A stretch of DNA of 64,000 bases from Chlorobiaceae bacterium (GTDB lineage Bacteria > Bacteroidota > Chlorobiia > Chlorobiales > Chlorobiaceae). Made by a program: the position numbers and the translations under genes. The stretch spans positions 32,771 to 96,770 of the forward strand of contig JAAXWP010000003.1 of the NCBI GenBank assembly GCA_013334925.1. Direction: 5' to 3'. A model generated the notes under the pieces. The model worked only from the letters and a program-made list of their open reading frames with translations, made no database searches and had not been told where the DNA came from. Of this stretch, positions 28,281 through 39,045 are shown piece after piece (the first letter of the stretch is position 1; every line of letters starts with the position of its first letter).

Positions 28281-31043
28281 TCACAGTTCAAACCGCACAC
28301 CGACCTCACATCCATGCGAATCGGCACCATTTCTGAACTGCCCGGCATAGTTCGCATAGCAGTACCCATTTTTCATCAGACGCATGGTAGCTCCCGCTTT
28401 CGTCTGGAAAAATGTTTGCGATACCCTTGGTGTCAGAATCGGCATGTCGATATCAGCAAGCTCTGCATCAACCTGCGGATGGGCAAGATCAGAGCTGTCT
28501 CTGCCAAATCCGAGATTGAGATGAAAAGTCGATGGGACCGCCAGCGGGTTTCGGGTTTCAGAGCCGAGCGCCACACCGGCCATCATCCGGGTCCCGTTCA
28601 TGCTGTATCCCGGCAGACTCAATGCCGCCGGGGAAGCGCCATCCTCCTCGATCGATCCCCGATCACTGTGGACCCAGACCAGTGACGCATATGGCTGCAC
28701 GCTCAACCCCTTTGAGGTAACCGGCACGCGAAGGGTAACACCGGCCATGCTGTCGAATCCGTTTTCTTCAGAGTCCAATGACTCCGGGCTCAATCCAAGC
28801 GGATCGGGACGGCTTGTTTTCCAGTTTGTGGAACCCAATGAGACCAAACTCTCCAGTACAGCGCCTCCAAGGTTGAACTGACCGTAGACAAATCCCATAT
28901 TCTGCGTAGCGGAACCGGAGCTATCGTGCGAGGCATCCACATCGGCATCGACATGGGAATAACCGACGCCGATCCGGGCATTTTTATTTAACAGGAGGTC
29001 GCCACCCACCGTATACTGGTTGCGGTCGGCATCGAATGAAGAGGCCAGATCATCACCATACCTCTTATCCCAGTTTTTTGTAGCGGTAAACCAGACGCCT
29101 CTTTTGGTGGTTTTATCCTCCCCACAAAGCGGAGACTCACCCAGGATATCCGACACCATCGATTGCAGAGCCAGTGAAGAGAGGGGAACCTCTGCCGCCA
29201 TTGCACCATGCACTTCACCAGCAAGCGCTGTAGTCATACCCGTCAGATTGGCAGCATTCGCTCCAGCCGCTCCATAAAGCAAGGCCTGCTGCTTGCTGCT
29301 GACCGGTGAAACGGAATCGGCAGCGACGAGCTGATCAAGCACCCTTGCCGCCGACTGCGCATTCTCGTTCCCGTCATGTAAATAGACATAACTCTCCCAT
29401 GAAGTCGGAATCACGCGAAGGTCGACACTGTTGCTGCCAGCGACATTGTAGAACGCATAAAAACGGGTACCATCCAGCAAACCTGAGGCCGGCTGCAGTA
29501 TCGTATCGAATCTGCCGCTTATCCCGCCGTCGGCCGTAACGATCCTGAAGCTGTCACCAAGCGAGGGTACAAAGGTATTATTGGCCGATCCGGTGATTCC
29601 TCTCAGCACAGGGGAAAGCGTAGAACCGGATTCGATCACAAACTGATTTCCGGTTCCGGTTATCAGCAACCGATCGTAATTGCCCGCGCCATCGCCAGTC
29701 CCAAGCCCGTCAACATCCACGCTCATGGTACTGCCACTCGCCATGGTAACGGTTCCGACCGTTGTCAGGGTACCCGGTGAATTTCCAGGAGCCAGGATTC
29801 CTGCAACCGTGATCGGGCTGTTGATCACGCCGAGACCATGCAACGCCGCTCCGGTATTGACAATCACCGGGCTGCTTAAAAGACCGTTCACGACCAGTGT
29901 CGCCCCGGTCTCGACCGTTGTCGTTCCGGTAAACGTATTGATACCAGAAAGCGTTACGGACCCGCCAGAACCGGTATTTTTGATGTTCAGGAACCCGGGT
30001 GAATTTACTGCGGCATTGGAGATATCTCCTGAAAACGTCGATGCCAAGCCATTCTGATCGATAGTACCGCCAGTTGATTTTACCGTAAAGTCCTGCGCCA
30101 TGGTAAGATTGGCGGCGCCAGCCTTAAGGGTACCGCCATCAAACACCGTGGAGACGCTCCCGGCAGCCACCGCTGCTGCAGTAATGGGTGTAGATCCTGA
30201 TATATCACCACCACCCGAGGTCACCGTACCAGCTGTATTACCGATAAAAAACAGCGGGTCATACATCGCATTATCATCTCTGGAATTAAAATCCACAAAA
30301 CTGACCCAGTAGGTACCTGCAGTGGTGATATCGAAGGTATAGGTTTCCCACTGGGTAGACCCATAATTCGACATCACAATCGTTCCGGCTGGATACCCAC
30401 CTTGTGGTGGAGTAGTCGCTGCATAACCAATTCTTGCGAGCAACTTAACCGTTTGGTTTCCATTGTTATCCGATATCGCAAACAAAACACCATCACTGAA
30501 TGGGGTATAGTCTGCCGCAGCATAAGCCCAGGCAAACGAGTATGTCCCAGCAGTAAAAGTGAAGCTTTTAGTGATCACACCATAATTTTTCGTATTGAGA
30601 TCGTTCGATTGTACAATACCAGAACTTACTATTGATTTTACTGAACCATTGGTAAGGTGAAGCGCTGCATCGATGGAGTCAAGATTCGTGCTGTTGTTGA
30701 TGGTAAGCGATGTCCCCGAGGGTTTTATAAGCACCATTGTCTCGCCTGATGCTGGGGCCAGAGTGTAGTCAGAAAATCCAAGAATTTGGTCCCCGAGTGT
30801 TACAGAATACGTTGTCGGAGATGAATAGGTTGTTGTGGATCCATACACAGTCCAGCCAGACAACCCGCTCGAAAAGTCCAGAAAGGTATCGGCAGCACTC
30901 GCCGATCTCGAGATCAGCATCATGACGGCAAGACTGAGAGCCCCAAGATTGAGAACCGGGCATCCTTTTGCACCCGCTTTTTCAGAAACGACAAGCCATT
31001 TCTGCTTTACCTTCGACCATACAATTTTGTGAATCCTGTTCAT
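28281..31043 (-). CDS. type Va autotransporter with an ESPR extended signal peptide
   Basis: Starting at ATG 31043 gives MNRIHKIVWSKVKQKWLVVSEKAGAKG, the ESPR motif. The passenger has autotransporter-associated beta-strand repeats (GGTLKAG..., GSVTLSGINTFTGTTTVETGATLVVNG). The C-terminal beta-barrel domain ends ...GVRFEL. Confidence 0.9.
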   Translation of the reverse strand: MNRIHKIVWSKVKQKWLVVSEKAGAKGCPVLNLGALSLAVMMLISRSASAADTFLDFSSGLSGWTVYGSTTTYSSPTTYSVTLGDQILGFSDYTLAPASGETMVLIKPSGTSLTINNSTNLDSIDAALHLTNGSVKSIVSSGIVQSNDLNTKNYGVITKSFTFTAGTYSFAWAYAAADYTPFSDGVLFAISDNNGNQTVKLLARIGYAATTPPQGGYPAGTIVMSNYGSTQWETYTFDITTAGTYWVSFVDFNSRDDNAMYDPLFFIGNTAGTVTSGGGDISGSTPITAAAVAAGSVSTVFDGGTLKAGAANLTMAQDFTVKSTGGTIDQNGLASTFSGDISNAAVNSPGFLNIKNTGSGGSVTLSGINTFTGTTTVETGATLVVNGLLSSPVIVNTGAALHGLGVINSPITVAGILAPGNSPGTLTTVGTVTMASGSTMSVDVDGLGTGDGAGNYDRLLITGTGNQFVIESGSTLSPVLRGITGSANNTFVPSLGDSFRIVTADGGISGRFDTILQPASGLLDGTRFYAFYNVAGSNSVDLRVIPTSWESYVYLHDGNENAQSAARVLDQLVAADSVSPVSSKQQALLYGAAGANAANLTGMTTALAGEVHGAMAAEVPLSSLALQSMVSDILGESPLCGEDKTTKRGVWFTATKNWDKRYGDDLASSFDADRNQYTVGGDLLLNKNARIGVGYSHVDADVDASHDSSGSATQNMGFVYGQFNLGGAVLESLVSLGSTNWKTSRPDPLGLSPESLDSEENGFDSMAGVTLRVPVTSKGLSVQPYASLVWVHSDRGSIEEDGASPAALSLPGYSMNGTRMMAGVALGSETRNPLAVPSTFHLNLGFGRDSSDLAHPQVDAELADIDMPILTPRVSQTFFQTKAGATMRLMKNGYCYANYAGQFRNGADSHGCEVGVRFEL

Positions 31044-31797
31044 GGGGAGATGAGATTTAGTTGGAGGTTTGTTGACGATAAAGGACGGAAACGGATACCG
31101 GAATCGCTGGACAGGCACCATGCAGCAGCCTTTCGCGGCATCGGACTGCACGCGATTGCCGGGTTGATATCGGCTGTTGAGAGCTGACAATACGGGGTAA
31201 AAGAGACGAGCGAGATAAAAAAGATATGGGCTACGAGAAGTAGGGCAAGAAAGATACAATCGATGATAACAGGCATTGCCTTATGAGTGAATGGGGGTAG
31301 CAACCACTATCACCAATATACGTCATTATCACCAACAATCAACTTATATATTGTTTCAAAACAACATCACATTCCAGAGACACAGATATTGTCATACCAC
31401 ACTAAAACACTTTATTTTAAACAGATAGCTCACATATATACATATAATTCAGAGCGACTCCTATATATATAACACAAGCAACAAGCCCTGATCCCAGCAC
31501 TTATGTCATAAAATCAATGCCGGATTATAACTTCAAAATGCATCCGATGTTTCACCCGGCGCTACCAGTCAATACATATCGAACCATCTGCTCAATTAAC
31601 AGCATACATACACCTTTATATGCAACAAAAAACACTCAACCTATATAATACTTTACATACGCCATGCATTACGAATGAGTATCTGTTCACCCAGAGATTG
31701 TTTCATACGGCGGAGGATTATCAGTGGCAGGAAAAGAGACTCCACTCAATTATTACTCCAGCAACATCAAGTCGCAAATGAATACCGCTCCAAATCT

Positions 31798-31874
31798 GTC
31801 ATCCTGAACGAAGTGAAGGATCCATCTTCTTTTCAAGCATGGAGTTATGGATTTTTCAATTCGCTCAGTATGAT
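31798..31874. repeat. MITE-like imperfect palindromic element (short copy)
   Basis: The left arm is GTCATCCTGAACGAAGTGAAGGATCCAT. The right arm reverse-complements to ATCATACTGAGCGAATTGAAAAATCCAT. It belongs to the same family as 59121..59237. Confidence 0.6.
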
Positions 31875-31997
31875 ATTGTCTGCTGTTGCGAGATGTGGCC
31901 TTTAATCACCGGAACAATAACAAATCGACTATTGATTAACGCTGCTCGTATTCCGATGCATAGGGCTATCAACGGCAACACCTGTAATGAAAGTTTG

Positions 31998-32903
31998 TCA
32001 GGAGAACACATAAGCGAACTGTCTCAAGAATCGCCTTTCCGGTGACCAATCGGTGATTGCGAACACAACGTCTGCAAAGTGCCCAGCAAAATCGCCTTCC
32101 AATGCCTTACGAAAATCGAGCGCTGTGCGGTACGGATCATTTGCAAATGCTCCGCAGCCCCATGCGCCGAGCACAAGAGTTTCATAACCATACGCTGAAG
32201 CGACCGCAAGGATGCGATGTATTCGTTTCTGCAAGAGGTTTGCAGATTCGGGTTGACCGATCACCGGGGCGTATGGTGCTGCAGAGGTCAGAAAACCAAG
32301 GTTCCATGGTTCATCGAGCGCTCTTCCACTATCTGTTCGGAAAACAGGTACATCTGGAGAGTAGATCACCCAGTCGCTGGAATCAGGTCGTTGACGACGC
32401 TCGTGGTATTCATACATGGGATCATCAACCAGGGTGCAGTAAAGAGCGCTTGAACGGCAAAGCACCTCTTCCTGTGCTTTCGCACCACTGAGAAAACCGC
32501 CTCCCGGGCGAACGCCATTCGCAAAATTGAGGGCAAGAGTTCGGTGCCCGTCTTGAACCAAACGAAACGAAGCCTGAAGCGTCGTTTCATTGCAGACCAG
32601 AACCCTTGTCTCAGGAAGGTGAAGTGGAGGCCTGGTAATCTGTAATGCGACATCAGGCGGAATGCTCTGTTTCAGTACTCGGGCGTGGGAAACAGCCTCG
32701 CTCCAGTCAACCTTTTGGCCTGTGCTGTTGACGTAGTAACCGCGGTTTATTGCTTCGACGGCTGACAAGCCGAGCTCTGACGCACTTTCCCGGGATATAT
32801 CCAGAGCTTGTCTGCATGATCTGGCCATCTCAGGAGAATCCATGCAGCCAAGCATCCTCAGCCGGGGTCCCGTCTCTCCACCATGCTCTCCCTCCGCATT
32901 CAT
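31998..32903 (-). CDS. bacterial-type poly(ADP-ribose) glycohydrolase family macrodomain protein (DUF2263/TIGR02452)
   Basis: The PARG signature GGG-X7-QEE is present: NFANGVRPGGGFLSGAKAQEEVLCRSS (GGG at aa 134-136, QEE at aa 144-146). A later AWGCGAF block is typical of the family. Confidence 0.8.
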   Translation of the reverse strand: MNAEGEHGGETGPRLRMLGCMDSPEMARSCRQALDISRESASELGLSAVEAINRGYYVNSTGQKVDWSEAVSHARVLKQSIPPDVALQITRPPLHLPETRVLVCNETTLQASFRLVQDGHRTLALNFANGVRPGGGFLSGAKAQEEVLCRSSALYCTLVDDPMYEYHERRQRPDSSDWVIYSPDVPVFRTDSGRALDEPWNLGFLTSAAPYAPVIGQPESANLLQKRIHRILAVASAYGYETLVLGAWGCGAFANDPYRTALDFRKALEGDFAGHFADVVFAITDWSPERRFLRQFAYVFS

Positions 32904-33341
32904 ACCTCTGGCTCCGATTCATTATCACGGAACAGATTCACATAGCTCTGATAGGTGAACTTCCTGTTTCGAACCTGACCGGTAAATTCTGCTTGCTGAC
33001 CTCGATCACTCCTTGAAGAAAAAAAGCAAGCCAATCCTCCCAAAATCCATAATCACGAACATCCTGCAATGAACTTTGGGTTCCTTCGATCTGGCTTGAG
33101 AGAACGGCTTCTTTTCGCACGTACATGAATACGAACAGAAGCGGGTGTGGCAATGTCTGTATAGACCCGTCAAGACGACCCAAGGCAAGATCCGCCTTTG
33201 ACAGGAGCCCTTGCAACTCATTCTCGATCATGACCGGTGGCGACGGTGGTAATGGTGCAGAAACGCTCGATAGTCACTCAATTGTCTTACATAACGCCCT
33301 GCTCTTGCTGAACCATCCGTATTCGCATCGAAGTTGCCCAT
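32900..33341 (-). pseudogene. decayed Fic-family gene (two frameshifts plus loss of the catalytic core)
   Basis: Three frames together read MGNFDANTDGSARAGRYVRQLSDYRAFL / APLPPSPPVMIENELQGLLSKADLALGRLDGSIQTLPHPLLFVFMYVRKEAVLSSQIEGTQSSLQDV.. WEDWLAFFLQGVIEVSKQ / EFTGQVRNRKFTYQSYVNLF...EV*. These are the N- and C-terminal hallmarks of one Fic subfamily. The HPFxxGNGR core is missing. The stop (32902-32900) overlaps the PARG ATG. Confidence 0.75.
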
Positions 33342-33873: not shown

Positions 33874-34353
33874 GTTATGCGGGGTCAGCAGCAGCGAATC
33901 CGACACATAGCCATTTGCAAAATCTTCCTGATACAAGGATCACTTGCCGATGCAGAATATACTGCACTCACGCCTAAACATTATTTCATATACTCTTAGC
34001 AAAAGGTTCGCCGACAATAATATGCATATTAGCAACAAAGTGTTTTAGGAACAGGTAAACAGCAGCATATTCTGAAGTGTATGGATGTATTGACATCCTT
34101 CAATTAGAATCGGTGAATAGTCATGACAGGTGTGTGGAGGTCTACTAAGCATCCCCCCACACTTTGAAGTCCTGAGGGATACTAAATGAGGTTTAAATGT
34201 CAAATATTTGTTTTAAGGAGATTGCTTAATAAAATTGTATGAAGTTTATCGGCTTACAGCTGCGAACATCCTGGACGCTCCTGTCCACCGAATAATAGTG
34301 ATAAAAGCACTAAACCAAATATCCTCTTTAATCACCTTATATTTATATATAAA

Positions 34354-35238
34354 TTATGGGACAAGGCAATTTATTCCGCATAGCTCCTTGTCAATATATC
34401 TTAAACCACATGATTTTGGCAATTTCAAAAAATCACTAAAGACAAAAACCTCTTTTCCCTTGTAATTCCTAGCAGCCGAATATTGCAAATCATATGTAAA
34501 ATGGCTCATAGCTGAGTATAATTCGATTATTTCCGGAACATTATCATATGATAACACCCACGGTTTAGCAACATTACGAATGGCCCTGGAAATCCGCTCA
34601 TGATCTTTTGGTTTATAGGAATTAAGATAAAGGTCTTTTGCTTTATTATAATATGGAGGGTCGAAATAAAGCAAACTATTATCATCCAAAACCGGAACAT
34701 AGTTATCGATAAATTCCTCAGCATCTAAGTTTGAAAGAAATATTGAATCCCCATATAACCCAATTAACTCAATCCTCCGTATCAAATCATTTCTGGAGAA
34801 TCTCGCGTCCATTTTATAGTTCCCACTTTGGTTTAAGCCCCCGATAACACCCGCATTGAGAACTCCCGACCTATTGCAACGATTCATATAGAACGTAGAA
34901 TAGCCCACCTCAAAAAGGCTGTATTGCTCAGGTGATTTAAGCACCTCTCGACGCCTCTCCCATTCCTCAATTGTTAGAGATGCTGATAGTATACGTCCGC
35001 AAAGCTTTTCATTTTCATTCTTAACCGCATGCCAAAAAGCGTAGATCCTAATATCCGAATCATTCAAATGAATACGCTTTATTTTTTTGGCAAGCAAGAG
35101 TTCTAAAGCCACTCCTGCTCCACCTGCATATGGCTCAACATAGTTTCCATCAATCCCGTTTATTTCCAATATTTCGCCAATAAATGGCGCCAATCTTTGT
35201 TTCCCCCCAGGGTATCTTAATGGTGTCCTATTCATCAT
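34354..35238 (-). CDS. Dam-family (D12 class, alpha-type) N6-adenine DNA methyltransferase
   Basis: LRYPGGKQRL, motif I NYVEPYAGGAGVALELL, and motif IV LLYFDPPYY (DPPY at aa 193-196), in the order I...IV. The gene is AT-rich. Its start is 1 nt after the upstream gene's stop. Confidence 0.9.
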   Translation of the reverse strand: MMNRTPLRYPGGKQRLAPFIGEILEINGIDGNYVEPYAGGAGVALELLLAKKIKRIHLNDSDIRIYAFWHAVKNENEKLCGRILSASLTIEEWERRREVLKSPEQYSLFEVGYSTFYMNRCNRSGVLNAGVIGGLNQSGNYKMDARFSRNDLIRRIELIGLYGDSIFLSNLDAEEFIDNYVPVLDDNSLLYFDPPYYNKAKDLYLNSYKPKDHERISRAIRNVAKPWVLSYDNVPEIIELYSAMSHFTYDLQYSAARNYKGKEVFVFSDFLKLPKSCGLRYIDKELCGINCLVP

Positions 35239-35239
35239 A

Positions 35240-36682
35240 TCAATTCATTGCTTCCAACAAAGGGTAAACGTTGTTAAACAGTGCGAATATGTCATGAGGA
35301 GCAATTGAAAAAGTCGGATTATGAACCAACTGGTTCATTGAAGTTACTGATAGCAATCCCGTTGCTTTTGAAAGCTCAGAATTTGCACCATGCAAGACTT
35401 TTACCATTCCTGTATTTGCATTATTGCTTGTAAGAAAAAGAGTCACCGCGTTAAGTTGTTGCCTCAAATTATTATCAGCTTTCCCGTTCGCCTGCTTCTT
35501 AGAGATATCATTCTCATCAGAATATATATTTGCTGAAATCTCAAACATACTTCTGAGGATGAAGCAAAAGGCTATTGGATTATTTATAACCTTTAACTTC
35601 CTCAATTCATCCCTTAAAGTTACAATTTTTTGTCTGTTATTTCCTTTTGGAATAAAATTTTTTAGAGTTTGAGTGACGTATTTCTGGTCATGTATTGCAT
35701 ATGCTTTTGGCTTTTGCGTGCTCTGACTTACTGTTTGGCCTGTCGAACCAGAGGTAATCGAACCTTGAGCTGGAGCAGTGCCCTGTACGCCATTATTTGA
35801 TGTATTGCTGTTTTGGACTGCGGGATTATTACACGTAGACGCAGTTACGCTCCCTCCTATACTAGTACTTGTAGTGCCTGTTGTCGCAGACGAAAGAACC
35901 GGAATATTGTAATCTGCAGCGAAATCAGTGGATGCGTCACGTATTTCTTTAAATCCAAAAACTTGTAATCCAATATCTCTTAATATGTCCTCTAAATCTG
36001 TGCGTCGGATTATCCCCGGATAAGCTTTGACGAGCTCAGATATTGAACCATATCCCATCCTGGTAACTATAGCTCTTAATGCTTCATCAAGTACAGTTAT
36101 GGGATAATCACCACTCCACCTTTCTTTTTGTTGTACTGTTAGATTATTTCCATTTTGTATATATTTTTCCAATAAATCAAGCGCTGGCTCTGAACCTTTT
36201 TTTTCATTTCTATTTTGGCGAGCCTTAGCAACAGATGTCCAAGGATCTCTACTTGCTTTTTCGCCCTTAGCATGAGTCAAATTAACAATCTTATCAACTA
36301 TACTCTTCTCTCCTATACTATAAACACTGCACGGAACCCTCAAATTTTCATCCTTCCAATTTTTATCCAAGGAGTTAATCCTATTCTTGACATTGTCAGG
36401 TATATTGAAGTTATCAACAGGATATATACCGTGTATAAGCTTTAATGCTGCTGCTCGTCGATTCCCCTCTTTGACAGTATACCCATCATCGCTCAAAATA
36501 ATCAAGTTTTCAGTCGGCAAATACCCGTCATCAATTATACTTTCAATCACAGCATAGAACCTATCCGGCTTTATAGCTATCATAGCATTAATAGCATCTT
36601 CCTCTGTCTTCTGCGGTATTGTCCGATAATTATTAAGATCAAGTTTAATATCCTTAATCTGGAGGAAATTATTGTTCGGCAT
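35240..36682 (-). CDS. ParB/Srx-fold N-terminal domain protein with a low-complexity linker and an unassigned C-terminal domain (480 aa)
   Basis: aa 10-85 read IKLDLNNYRTIPQ...IESIIDDGYLPTENLIILSDDGYTVKEGNRRAAALKLIHG, a ParB N-terminal domain pattern with GxRR. aa ~264-323 are S/T/G/N/Q-rich. aa ~325-480 are helical and of unknown family. The coding call is confident; the function is not. Confidence 0.8.
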   Translation of the reverse strand: MPNNNFLQIKDIKLDLNNYRTIPQKTEEDAINAMIAIKPDRFYAVIESIIDDGYLPTENLIILSDDGYTVKEGNRRAAALKLIHGIYPVDNFNIPDNVKNRINSLDKNWKDENLRVPCSVYSIGEKSIVDKIVNLTHAKGEKASRDPWTSVAKARQNRNEKKGSEPALDLLEKYIQNGNNLTVQQKERWSGDYPITVLDEALRAIVTRMGYGSISELVKAYPGIIRRTDLEDILRDIGLQVFGFKEIRDASTDFAADYNIPVLSSATTGTTSTSIGGSVTASTCNNPAVQNSNTSNNGVQGTAPAQGSITSGSTGQTVSQSTQKPKAYAIHDQKYVTQTLKNFIPKGNNRQKIVTLRDELRKLKVINNPIAFCFILRSMFEISANIYSDENDISKKQANGKADNNLRQQLNAVTLFLTSNNANTGMVKVLHGANSELSKATGLLSVTSMNQLVHNPTFSIAPHDIFALFNNVYPLLEAMN

Positions 36683-37084
36683 GATTATTGTTTTCGTTTT
36701 TTATTCACTCAAAACATACTCAACCACATTTTTTCATTCTCCCATATCAGAAGACTATACGCAACACAGTTACGAACTTTCTTTAGCCTGCGAATCGCCA
36801 CCATGCCGCTTCAGAATAGTTTACCAAAACGACAATAGGCCCCTCCAGCCTACTTAAGGAAATTCCAGTATTTACGATAGAGACTCAAGTGCACACACTT
36901 ACTTACAAAACTCATCCTTATAAAAGGCTTGTGGATCACATTTCCTATAAGACAAATAAGATTATGCCGTTATTCCATCAAACACAATTACTTAAAGTAA
37001 TAAATTCGCAAAATCATATCAAGCAGATAAGCAGTGTGCTTAATGAACAGGCATCCGATTCTTTGTATCCAGCTATACGGTTGC

Positions 37085-37149
37085 TTGCATAACTCCAATT
37101 ATGTAAACCTTTAGGTTCCGAAGGCCCGTACATAATTTAAGTTATGCAA
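37085..37149. repeat. 65-nt imperfect palindrome in the AT-rich island
   Basis: Arms TTGCATAACTCCAATTATGTA (37085-37105) and TACATAATTTAAGTTATGCAA (37129-37149) match at 19/21 positions. The 23-nt loop has its own CCTT/AAGG stem. No T-run follows on either strand. Confidence 0.7.
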
Positions 37150-37608
37150 CGACCACTGACAACACGCCAAATGTACTGATAGTGCAAGATAGTAAAATCA
37201 CCCAAAGCGTTGACTGAAGGCGCAGCTTTTGCACCACAAAACGCAGCGAAGCGGAGTGTAAGCTGTGACTGAAAGAGAAAGCTAGGGGGTATGACTTCAA
37301 ATGAACTGATGAGCTGACTAGCTATTCTGCATGGTAGCAAGTAATCCGATGAGCAATCACTGCTGAGGCTTGAACACAAGCCGAATGCCATGACTTCAAA
37401 AAAAACATGCCCTTAAAACGTTTTGGCTGTCAAATACGGCCCCTGACTACCAATTGAGGAAATTCTTCGAGGAAATTCTCCGGGACGTTGTTGAATAACG
37501 CAAACAGCATAAAACAGAAACTCGTCGAGCATTCATTCAGTATAAAAAAACGAGACTTATGTTGCTAAATCCCTTTGAACGAGAGCAAGCAAGCGTTTGC
37601 AACCCATC

Positions 37609-39045
37609 CTATTTACCGATGCAGAATTTGGCGAAGATGGTGTTGAGGATCTCTTCGTTGACGACTTTGCCGGTGATTTCACCTACGTAGTCGAGGGCTG
37701 ATCGGAGCTCGAAGGCTATGAGTTCGGTGTCGGCGTGGTGGTCGATGAGTTCGCGGGCATTTTCAAGGGCGTCTGCGGCGTTGCGCAGGGCCTCGTAGTG
37801 GCGGAGGCTGGTGACGAGCACACTGGCCTCGTGCAGCTTGTCGAGATCCTTGACGAGTTCGGACATGCGCTGCAGGAGCGCTTCGACACCACGGCCATCA
37901 CGTGCTGAAATGCCGATCACTTCAGCTCCGGCTTCGCTGGAGACCTTCTGCATGACCTCGTCGGACGATGAAAGCAGGTCGACCTTGTTGGCGACGACGA
38001 GGAAGCGTACCTCGGGATGCGCTGCCCTGACGGCCCTGATGTCAGCAATCTCTTCGTCGAGCCGTTCGGTACCGGCATCGAAGAGGTAGAGCATGAGGTC
38101 GGCCTCGGCCATCTTCATGCGGCTGCGGCGGATGCCTTCGTGCTCGATCTCCTCACCGGCTTCACGCAGGCCGGCCGTATCGGTGAGGCGGAACATGGTC
38201 TTGTCGTGAATGAAGCACTCTTCAATATAGTCGCGGGTCGTGCCCGGCATGTGGCTGACGATGGCGCGTTCCTGGCCGAGCAGGGTGTTGAGCAGGGTCG
38301 ATTTGCCGGCGTTCGGCCGTCCGGCGATGACCGTCGCAACCCCTTCGCTGAGCAGTCGCCCATGCTGGTAGGAGTCGACGAGCCTGCCGACTTCGCGCCG
38401 AAGGTCATCGACCTGCCGGGTGAGCTCTTCGCGGCTCTGGAATTCGACCTCCTCTTCGCTGAAATCGAGTTCAAGTTCGAGCAGGGCGCAGGAGTGCAGC
38501 AGCCTTTCGCGTAGGGCGTTGAGCTTTTTCGAGAGGTCGCCTTTCATCTGGGTGACGGCTGTGCGCCATGCGGATTCCGAACGGGCATGGATCATCTCGC
38601 CGATCGCCTCGGCCTGCAACAGATCGATGCGACCGTTGAGGAAAGCGCGCCGGGTGAACTCGCCGGGTTCGGCAAGCCGGCAACCGTTGTCCAGCAGCAG
38701 TTGCAGCACGTGTTTGACCACGACCGGACCGCCGTGGCAGGTGAACTCGACCATGTCCTCGGCCGTAAAGGAGTGTGGCCCCCTGAAAACCAGCGCGATC
38801 ACTTCGTCGATCATCTCCTCGCCGTCATAAAGCCGCCCGAAATGAGCCAGGAAACCTGGAGAGGAAGCGAGTGCCTGCGCTTCCCCGTTCGCCTTCTGGA
38901 ACACCCTGTCGGCGATCTGGTGCGCACCGTTGCCGCTGATGCGGACCACGGCCAGCGCGCCAACGCCCACCGGCGTGGCTACGGCAGTTATGGGATCGCC
39001 CGGGATGGGCAGGAGAAGATCGGTTCCGGACATACTGCTTTTCAT
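37609..39045 (-). CDS. mnmE: tRNA modification GTPase MnmE (TrmE)
   Basis: G-domain GRPNAGKSTLLN...DTAG, an N-terminal THF-binding domain, and the C-terminal FCIGK motif. Confidence 0.95.
   Translation of the reverse strand: MKSSMSGTDLLLPIPGDPITAVATPVGVGALAVVRISGNGAHQIADRVFQKANGEAQALASSPGFLAHFGRLYDGEEMIDEVIALVFRGPHSFTAEDMVEFTCHGGPVVVKHVLQLLLDNGCRLAEPGEFTRRAFLNGRIDLLQAEAIGEMIHARSESAWRTAVTQMKGDLSKKLNALRERLLHSCALLELELDFSEEEVEFQSREELTRQVDDLRREVGRLVDSYQHGRLLSEGVATVIAGRPNAGKSTLLNTLLGQERAIVSHMPGTTRDYIEECFIHDKTMFRLTDTAGLREAGEEIEHEGIRRSRMKMAEADLMLYLFDAGTERLDEEIADIRAVRAAHPEVRFLVVANKVDLLSSSDEVMQKVSSEAGAEVIGISARDGRGVEALLQRMSELVKDLDKLHEASVLVTSLRHYEALRNAADALENARELIDHHADTELIAFELRSALDYVGEITGKVVNEEILNTIFAKFCIGK

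Follow-up and report, generated by a model that had tools for sequence, protein, structure and literature searches.

PD-λ-5 is a two-gene anti-phage system that was found by functional selection in Escherichia coli ECOR7 (Vassallo et al. 2022; PMC9519451). In that report, the supplementary-table annotation reads 'ParB/HEPN, methyltransferase', with the HEPN label taken from HHpred, and the authors term it a 'highly compacted RM+Abi system', i.e. restriction-modification (R-M) plus abortive infection (Abi). The same report describes a prototype, cloned in a host without the mrr region, that had an effect on all but one of the ten phages tested and protected best against T-even phages; the E. 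coli PD-λ-5 is called a prophage version there. A computational study of 2013 (PMC3710099) had already pointed out fusions of ParB and HEPN, together with a HEPN family whose operons also encode a ParB nuclease and a DNA methylase. PD-λ-5 is cataloged in PADLOC and is also reported by surveys using DefenseFinder. Searchable papers that use the term do not describe its mechanism, and the later surveys repeat the description without one. Here, we describe a gene pair, A and B, that we assign to this system. It lies in a 64,000-nucleotide (nt) stretch, called the window below, of the genome of a Chlorobiaceae bacterium (GCA_013334925.1, contig JAAXWP010000003.1, positions 32,771-96,770), and all coordinates are window positions unless a different locus is named. 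The pair sits next to mnmE (trmE), the gene at whose 3′ end SGI1-family elements are known to attach in Proteobacteria (PMC7433901).

The gene pair matches PD-λ-5

The pair consists of two genes on one strand:

35240-36682, minus strand: gene A, 480 amino acids (aa), an intact open reading frame (ORF); PD-λ-5 gene A, with a ParB-like N-terminal half, a disordered linker and a HEPN-like C-terminal domain
34354-35238, minus strand: gene B, 294 aa, an intact ORF; PD-λ-5 gene B, a predicted D12-class (Dam-like, alpha-type) N6-adenine DNA methyltransferase

In PADLOC, protein A matched the PD-Lambda-5_A model PDLC03997 with an E value of 2.4e-188, residues 1-480 aligning to positions 1-490 of the 491 in the profile, and 22 other PD-Lambda-5_A models matched A as well. 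Protein B matched the PD-Lambda-5_B models PDLC04018 (E 1.1e-113) and PDLC04019 (E 2e-67). The PADLOC definition of PD-λ-5 calls for an A profile, a B profile and genes that are adjacent and co-oriented, all of which are found here. Divergent members of the A family, at 25-38% identity, gave PADLOC matches to PD-Lambda-5_A models only. Taken together with the published PD-λ-5, these full-length matches make the pair a member of an already named and cataloged system. What is new is the host lineage, and the insertion hotspot that it occupies is of note. We regard the identity of the pair as PD-λ-5 as all but certain; its putative homology to the ECOR7 proteins RCQ13837.1 and RCQ13838.1 goes by the PADLOC profile set. 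The exact A protein is recorded once, in a Chlorobiaceae metagenome-assembled genome (MAG; HGB01_01895).

A preliminary description of this DNA had proposed a horizontally acquired, two-gene R-M-like defense module. That proposal is supported by the PADLOC matches, the validated E. coli system, the joint occurrence of the genes across phyla and the inserted AT-rich cassette. The novelty that it implied is not: the PADLOC search shows the pair to be cataloged under a name, an outcome the description itself had listed as grounds against it. Its reading of the genes stood. The two minus-strand ORFs are intact and lie 1 nt apart, as could be read directly from the junction (AAT TGA T ATG ATG on the minus strand, with 1 nt between the A stop codon at 35240-35242 and the B ATG at 35238). 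The motifs RYPGGK, EPYAGGAGV, DPPY and GNRR were each found in their place. The AT-rich island was likewise confirmed, with GC contents of 0.376 and 0.383 in the two genes as against 0.614 in mnmE next door, about 0.6 in the flanks and 0.54 in the window overall.

Within B, RYPGGK occupies aa 8-13, EPYAGGAGV (motif I) aa 35-43 and DPPY aa 193-196. The protein matches Pfam PF02086 above the cut-off (E 2.5e-17), with the S-adenosylmethionine motif I N-terminal to the DPPY motif IV, and the closest solved structure is 7m6b (E 1.3e-17). These motifs and matches show B to belong to the D12-class N6-adenine DNA methyltransferases. Against TIGR00571 dam of NCBIfam it scored 56.2 bits, below the cut-off of 114.85, and we class B as a Dam relative, not a Dam ortholog.

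A and B travel together across phyla

At thresholds of E ≤ 1e-3 and E ≤ 1e-30, an exhaustive profile search with A yielded 2275 and 218 clusters (50% identity), respectively. The nearest relatives of A, at 50-71% identity, come nearly all from Bacteroidota. Gene linkage was assessed in 73 loci, one genome per species and seeded on A only, which include Bacteroidota, Acidobacteriota, Pseudomonadota, Planctomycetota, Verrucomicrobiota, Gemmatimonadota, Nitrospirota, Chloroflexota, Armatimonadota and others. The preliminary description had allowed that homologs of A might usually lack an adjacent methyltransferase. This did not occur: a B homolog is present in 69 of the 73 loci, found through A alone, and in 64 it lies within 80 nt downstream on the same strand (depending on the count, A and B are adjacent and co-oriented in 64-66 of 73). 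Three of the four loci without B stop at a contig edge, and the fourth has a fragment of A only. Clustering of the 653 neighboring ORFs in these loci gave no conserved third gene, none being found in more than 4 loci, and ParA is not among the recurrent neighbors. On these counts, A and its methylase form an autonomous unit of two genes in at least a dozen phyla.

In four loci (L041, L034, L046 and L069), the neighbors of the pair group by sequence with type I R-M genes. At L041 (962-11770), a gap of 15 nt separates the end of hsdS from A downstream of it, and a gap of 54 nt separates B from the start of hsdM, the identities of hsdS and hsdM being confirmed by Pfam. This position between hsdS and hsdM is the classical place of Abi/HEPN genes such as prrC. 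Abi-type HEPN genes are common amid type I R-M genes (PMC3710099).

Variant arrangements were seen at two further loci. Orbus hercynius (L052, 8001-12050) carries a three-gene PD-λ-5 variant, in which a 555-aa AAA_15/AAA_21 ATPase (AriA/GajA/PtuA-like) is encoded between A and B. At L018 (4139-5269), the pair is followed after 273 nt by a second ParB-like ORF (376 aa), which matches the PADLOC candidate PDC-M38A (E 2.5e-26) and, weakly, PD-Lambda-5_A. Since PDC-M38A models also match the Orbus ATPase, these observations hint at a related ParB+ATPase system.

Protein A combines a ParB-like half with a helical C-terminal domain

Neither Pfam nor NCBIfam gave a match to A. Scanning 63 A homologs one by one with Pfam produced spurious matches only, caused by the low-complexity linker, with no ParB model and no DUF262 among them. 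Nothing real turned up when a profile of the A family was run against the sequences in the PDB. An AlphaFold model built from 63 homologs, with a mean predicted local distance difference test score (pLDDT) of 84, shows one confidently modeled globular region at aa 1-265 and another at about aa 330-480, with a linker between them:

35888-36682, minus strand: A aa 1-265, a ParB/Srx N-terminal domain (EGNRR at aa 72-76) and a helical, DNA-binding-like domain, as predicted by Foldseek
35720-35887, minus strand: A aa 266-321, the S/T/G/N/Q-rich linker, with pLDDT below 50
35243-35695, minus strand: A aa 330-480, a predicted all-helical, HEPN-like domain with invariant K352, E359, R377, E381, S383, N450 and H454

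The linker varies in length and sequence across the family. Its low complexity at aa ~264-323, pointed out in the preliminary description, is borne out by a content of 77% S/T/G/N/Q and by predicted disorder.

The top Foldseek matches of aa 1-265 in the PDB are ParB with cytidine diphosphate (CDP) or CTPγS, an analog of cytidine triphosphate (CTP) (7bnk, 7bnr and 6sdk), 7bm8, and Noc (7ol9 and 7nfu). Probabilities against ParB and Noc are 0.82-1.0 over about 250 columns and reach 1.0 for 7bnk, 7bnr, 6sdk and 7bm8. In BFVD, the N-terminal half matches mostly viral ParB/Srx proteins. Foldseek and the invariant EGNRR (GNRR at aa 73-76, window 36455-36466) place in A a ParB N-terminal fold with the GxxR(R) phosphate-binding motif, on which the Pfam ParB models are silent. 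A DndB/GmrSD (DUF262) type was rejected for A, as the motif is EGNRR and not DGQ(H/Q)R and Pfam gave no DUF262 match; one viral GmrSD N-terminal domain appeared among the Foldseek matches, only at E 0.06. The analogy with DndB and GmrSD in the preliminary description was a loose one, the motif being of ParB type and the best structures being nucleotide-bound (CDP/CTPγS) ParB and Noc, not DUF262.

This fold, which resembles chromosomal ParB and Noc with the DNA-binding-like domain included, could mean that A is a ParB-type partition or regulatory protein and that B, which has similarity to TIGR00571 dam, is an orphan epigenetic methylase, neither having a role in defense. We find this very hard to credit. 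ParA is absent near the pair in the window and is not recurrent in the 73 loci, and A has a HEPN-like domain in place of the ParB C-terminal dimerization domain. Pfam ParB models do not match A and B falls below the Dam cut-off, whereas the PADLOC models are specific for the family, which moreover adjoins R-M genes. The parAB/ParABS reading was rejected on the lack of ParA and of the ParB dimerization domain. A classical type II R-M system was set aside too: Pfam, NCBIfam, PADLOC and Foldseek found no PD-(D/E)XK, HNH, GIY-YIG or PLD domain in A or its neighbors. No restriction endonuclease, helicase or ParA was found near the pair. The preliminary description had arrived at the same view, i.e. 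neither a classical R-M operon nor a parAB locus, and its statement that no restriction endonuclease, helicase/ATPase, ParA or integrase is recognizable nearby agrees with our Pfam, NCBIfam, PADLOC and tblastn results.

When modeled alone, the C-terminal domain gave a pLDDT of 86 and a predicted template modeling (TM) score of 0.81. Its best meaningful Foldseek matches are HEPN proteins, 2q00 (probability 0.57, TM 0.56) and the HepT toxins 8xdj, 8xeh, 7ae6 and 5yep, all with E > 1. The HEPN protein 1wwp recurs among the matches of A as well, also with E > 1, and HEPN proteins are the only recurring meaningful matches for aa 330-480. The preliminary description could not place this domain. It has been published as HEPN; here it is only weakly HEPN-like, and the canonical arginine is absent.

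Across 68 members of the A family from many phyla, the invariant residues are E72-G73-N74-R75-R76, H137, K139, W148, R155 and R248 in the N-terminal half and K352, E359, R377, E381, S383, S445, N450 and H454 in the C-terminal domain. We also inspected divergent members at 25-38% identity, which came from the best 150 of the 2275 clusters; the most distant subfamilies, including the E. coli type, lie outside this motif inspection. Among the matches listed there, the invariant residues are L14, D15, N18, R20, E27, E58, V70, E72, N74, R76, K81, C118, H137, R145, W148, R155, W189, I237, G238, R248, K352, E359, R377 and H454.

Proposed mechanism and its alternatives

In our judgment, the pair is probably a PD-λ-5-type anti-phage cassette, horizontally acquired, located at the mnmE 3′ end and working along the lines given here. 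The outline itself, self-marking followed by detection and an effector, is offered tentatively and by analogy. B would methylate a short motif on host DNA and so mark self. The ParB-like half of A would bind DNA, possibly gated by a nucleoside triphosphate (NTP) such as CTP through the EGNRR pocket, and would detect unmethylated incoming DNA. An effector would then be activated: the HEPN-like domain could cleave RNA, R377 and H454 being its candidate catalytic residues, and stop the growth of the infected cell or, alternatively, the ParB-fold domain of A could nick DNA. The 1-nt gap would provide tight translational coupling that keeps methylase and effector co-expressed, as in R-M systems.

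Several points weigh against this reading. A HEPN fold for aa 330-480 is plausible, not demonstrated, since the Foldseek match is weak, with all E values above 1, and Pfam gave no match to the domain. In place of the HEPN motif Rx4-6H, A has [M/L]-N-x-x-[V/I]-H. Of the 68 members, 61 have M at position 449, 7 have L and none has R, and the position is again M or L in the members at 25-38% identity among the matches listed. Because the canonical arginine is always replaced by M or L, the candidate site would be an Arg...His pair on different helices, formed by the invariant H454 and the invariant R377. NTP binding by A is suggested by the fold similarity of a model, and sensing of the DNA methylation state by A would follow from the E. 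coli prototype and from R-M/Abi logic. The prototype itself may act by abortive infection or by direct immunity. The E. coli prototype groups in a different sequence cluster from the window pair: megablast of the window pair against 5,426 E. coli genomes gave no match, and tblastn against 50,697 phage records gave none either. Lastly, the host is an uncultured MAG, and the pair is known here from its genes alone. A plasmid search gave two weak partial matches only, and the A subfamily is essentially absent from sequenced plasmids and phages.

The absence of the canonical HEPN arginine in all members inspected, and the weakness of the HEPN fold match, would fit an arrangement in which the pair is a minimal type II-like R-M system. 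The ParB/Srx domain of A would then be a nickase or endonuclease on unmethylated DNA, and the C-terminal domain would serve only for dimerization or target recognition. Nuclease and NTPase activity has been recorded for ParB/Srx proteins (Maindola et al. 2014, as cited in PMC10853773 and PMC12839542), and the ParB-domain residues form the most strongly conserved block of A. We nevertheless consider this arrangement, the chief alternative, unlikely. K352, E359, R377 and H454 of the C-terminal domain are invariant down to 25% identity among the matches listed, and such invariant polar and charged residues suggest a catalytic or ligand-binding role more than a scaffold. Among ParB structures, the nearest ones are those of CTP-switch clamps and not of nucleases. 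Moreover, the prototype did best against T-even phages (PMC9519451). The heavily modified DNA of these phages resists most classical restriction.

More speculatively, and with low confidence, the PD-λ-5 reading can be taken further. A may be a nucleotide-gated, possibly CTP-gated, ParB-type clamp that loads or slides on DNA and reads the N6-methyladenine of its partner, unmarked DNA triggering a noncanonical HEPN-like effector (R377 and H454 on different helices). Separately, the mnmE tail may be an exchange site for integrase-less defense mini-cassettes, which would call for a trans-acting recombinase. If true, the clamp would amount to R-M logic without a restriction endonuclease and a new job for the ParB CTP switch.

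The cassette lies at a duplicated mnmE 3′ end

The insertion and its borders comprise the following features:

37609-39045, minus strand: mnmE (trmE), an ORF for the tRNA-modification GTPase; its 3′ end is the integration target
37609-37627, minus strand: live mnmE 3′ end, TTC TGC ATC GGT AAA TAG (FCIGK-stop), the proximal border with an attachment-site (att)-like repeat; GC steps from 0.59 to 0.41
36818-37608, minus strand: what is left of a second island, non-coding, its frames broken by indels; Rfam gave no match
36803-36817, minus strand: degenerate third att-like copy (ATTCTGAAGCGGCAT), with 12 of 15 repeat positions and weak on its own
36683-36802, minus strand: cassette leader of 120 nt, between the degenerate att-like copy and the A ATG, with only weak sigma-70-like matches; the promoter is presumably here
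33940-33958, minus strand: displaced mnmE tail relic, TTC TGC ATC GGC AAG TGA (FCIGK-stop), the distal insertion border; GC steps from 0.39 to 0.53

Six-frame translation of the window contains FCIGK-stop at exactly two sites, compared with zero in 300 shuffles. The two copies use synonymous codons, and both lie at GC steps. The whole insertion, bounded by the duplicated mnmE tail, is ~3.65 kb, and it holds no long ORFs besides A and B. Rfam gave no match on 31-38 kb at E ≤ 0.1. No integrase was found in the island or the window by tblastn with three integrases from related loci; no integrase profile search was run. A tRNA-type attachment site was rejected because the window has no tRNA genes. 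As for transcription, the sigma70-like promoter TTGCGT-17-GAGAAT suggested in the preliminary description has 7 of 12 consensus positions and is absent from the output of our sigma-70 scan, which found 20 promoter-like sites in this AT-rich DNA against 11.1 ± 3.5 in shuffles. Since such sites are common in AT-rich DNA and the proposed one was not recovered, no promoter can be claimed.

We compared the site with mnmE loci from metagenomes. The mnmE orthologs are 67-83% identical, and the MazG-SDR-mnmE synteny is kept upstream in 30 metagenome loci, whereas the downstream side differs. Two of the closest relatives, the Chlorobiaceae contigs L074 (9414-10262) and L103 (2155-9127), have a duplicated mnmE tail around AT-rich cargo. 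That of L074 is a 797-nt DUF4160/DUF2442 cassette, and that of L103 is an island of 6.9 kb which encodes a PDC-S49-like protein and part of RadC. Neither island has an integrase. In the window, L074 and L103, the distal relics end in AAG TGA or AAG TAA and the live mnmE tails in AAA TAG or AAA TAA. None of the 73 A loci shares flanks with the window cassette or has mnmE nearby. Going by these sequences, the mnmE 3′ end is an insertion hotspot in this Chlorobiaceae lineage, with three cargoes in three related genomes. The pair itself, whose closest relatives are in Bacteroidota, appears to have been acquired horizontally.

The region between the cassette and the live mnmE end has a counterpart in one of these relatives. 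About 425 nt at 36989-37413 (minus strand) share ~75-80% identity with the distal part of the island in L103 (L103 8518-8943). Frame-breaking indels mark the stretch as non-coding. Its possible roles are those of an element end, a regulatory region or an RNA of a new type. The degenerate copy at 36803-36817 lies 172 nt past this stretch, and the L103 relic lies 167 nt past its counterpart. Two tandem insertions with a junction at 36803-36817 are thus probable. On this tandem-insertion reading, the simplest one, about 2.85 kb (33959-36802) would make up the PD-λ-5 cassette proper, which would consist of the 120-nt leader, A, B and a tail of 395 nt.

The source run has also been assembled independently (Logan contig SRR11449211_3268734, L154). 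This contig of 3221 nt equals window 33884-37104, contains only A, B and a 67-aa ORF, and breaks on both sides of the cassette, which is consistent with border repeats or strain heterogeneity.

Flanking genes and the possibility of an addiction module

Past the distal border, the window contains the following genes:

32938-33231, minus strand: Fic remnant, 97 aa, with Fic_N (E 2e-17) joined to an apparent Fic C-terminal tail and the catalytic Fic domain missing
31998-32903, minus strand: microbial-type PARG / TIGR02452 macro-domain protein (E 1.4e-38 and 1.3e-61); GC 0.53
28281-31259, minus strand: autotransporter, 992 aa, with an Autotransporter beta-domain (E 1.8e-26) and an ESPR signal peptide

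The 97-aa Fic ORF is probably an internally deleted pseudogene. The PARG/macro-domain gene just beyond the island adjoins the Fic remnant and is a possible ADP-ribosylation-reversal gene of the same variable region. The AT-rich stretch after the autotransporter (31260-31997, GC 0.39) may be a further, older insertion.

An integrase-less cassette near pseudogene-like debris, i.e. the deleted Fic gene and the island remnants, could be a selfish addiction module of toxin-antitoxin type, or decaying cargo that no longer serves defense in this host. The methylase would then only neutralize the toxicity of A, and the cassette would persist because the cell dies on losing it. The tight coupling and near-constant co-occurrence of A and B (69/73 loci) would suit such a module, and the sister island at the same site in L074 is a small two-gene DUF4160/DUF2442 cassette. 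We judge this improbable, as both ORFs are intact with all conserved residues present, members of the family are many and widely distributed (2275 clusters, 50% identity), and the prototype measurably blocks phages (PMC9519451). Addiction and defense are not mutually exclusive.

Significance

As a discovery, the locus is small: a standard PADLOC run would label it PD-Lambda-5, and its combination of domains has a computational description from 2013 and a validation from 2022. Its remaining value arises because searchable papers do not explain the PD-λ-5 mechanism. Handles on that mechanism are the confident two-domain model of A, the short list of residues invariant to 25% identity and a 'HEPN' domain without the canonical arginine. 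Natural variants provide others, namely the three-gene form with an ABC-type ATPase and the copies embedded in type I R-M operons. In addition, the mnmE 3′ end is documented here as an insertion hotspot for defense cargo outside Proteobacteria.

Comparison with known systems

The structures that best match A aa 1-265 are those of the CTP-dependent clamps ParB and Noc (7bnk, 6sdk, 7bm8 and 7ol9), with which A shares a conserved GxxRR-type EGNRR and an N-terminal N-x-R. On the other side, A has no sequence-level match to them, no ParA, no sign of parS and no C-terminal dimerization domain. Its invariant block H137/K139/R145 also differs from what we take to be the canonical ParB box III.

The R-M-linked HEPN anticodon nucleases PrrC/RloC and the Abi genes in type I R-M loci resemble the proposed arrangement in that an RNase-type suicide effector is coupled to DNA modification, and some A-B pairs likewise lie between hsdS and hsdM. 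PrrC and RloC, however, have ABC-ATPase domains and need a complete type I R-M system, whereas the A-B pair comes with a methylase of its own and, Orbus (L052) excepted, lacks an ATPase.

The ParB/HEPN/methylase families described in 2013 (PMC3710099) have the same three domains in an R-M-like conflict system, with genes embedded in R-M operons. Compared by description, those families mostly have an active Rx4-6H, whereas the A family has M or L at that arginine and a conserved Arg on another helix.

Integrative mobilizable elements of the SGI1 family use the same site, the trmE/mnmE 3′ end, and also duplicate the gene tail at their borders (PMC7433901). The window insertion differs from them in size (3.65 kb versus about 43 kb for SGI1) and in its unrelated host phylum, and no integrase, xis, mobilization or replication genes were found in it, no integrase profile search having been run.

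The closest system is PD-λ-5 of ECOR7. The window pair differs from it in its host, a Chlorobiaceae MAG with relatives in Bacteroidota, and in being carried by an integrase-less mini-cassette at the mnmE tail rather than as a prophage version. In each of the two, a gene for a ParB/HEPN-type protein is followed in the same orientation by one for a D12-class adenine methylase, and no nuclease, helicase or ATPase accompanies them. Both are on mobile or accessory DNA, and the window proteins match the PD-Lambda-5 profile hidden Markov models over their full length.

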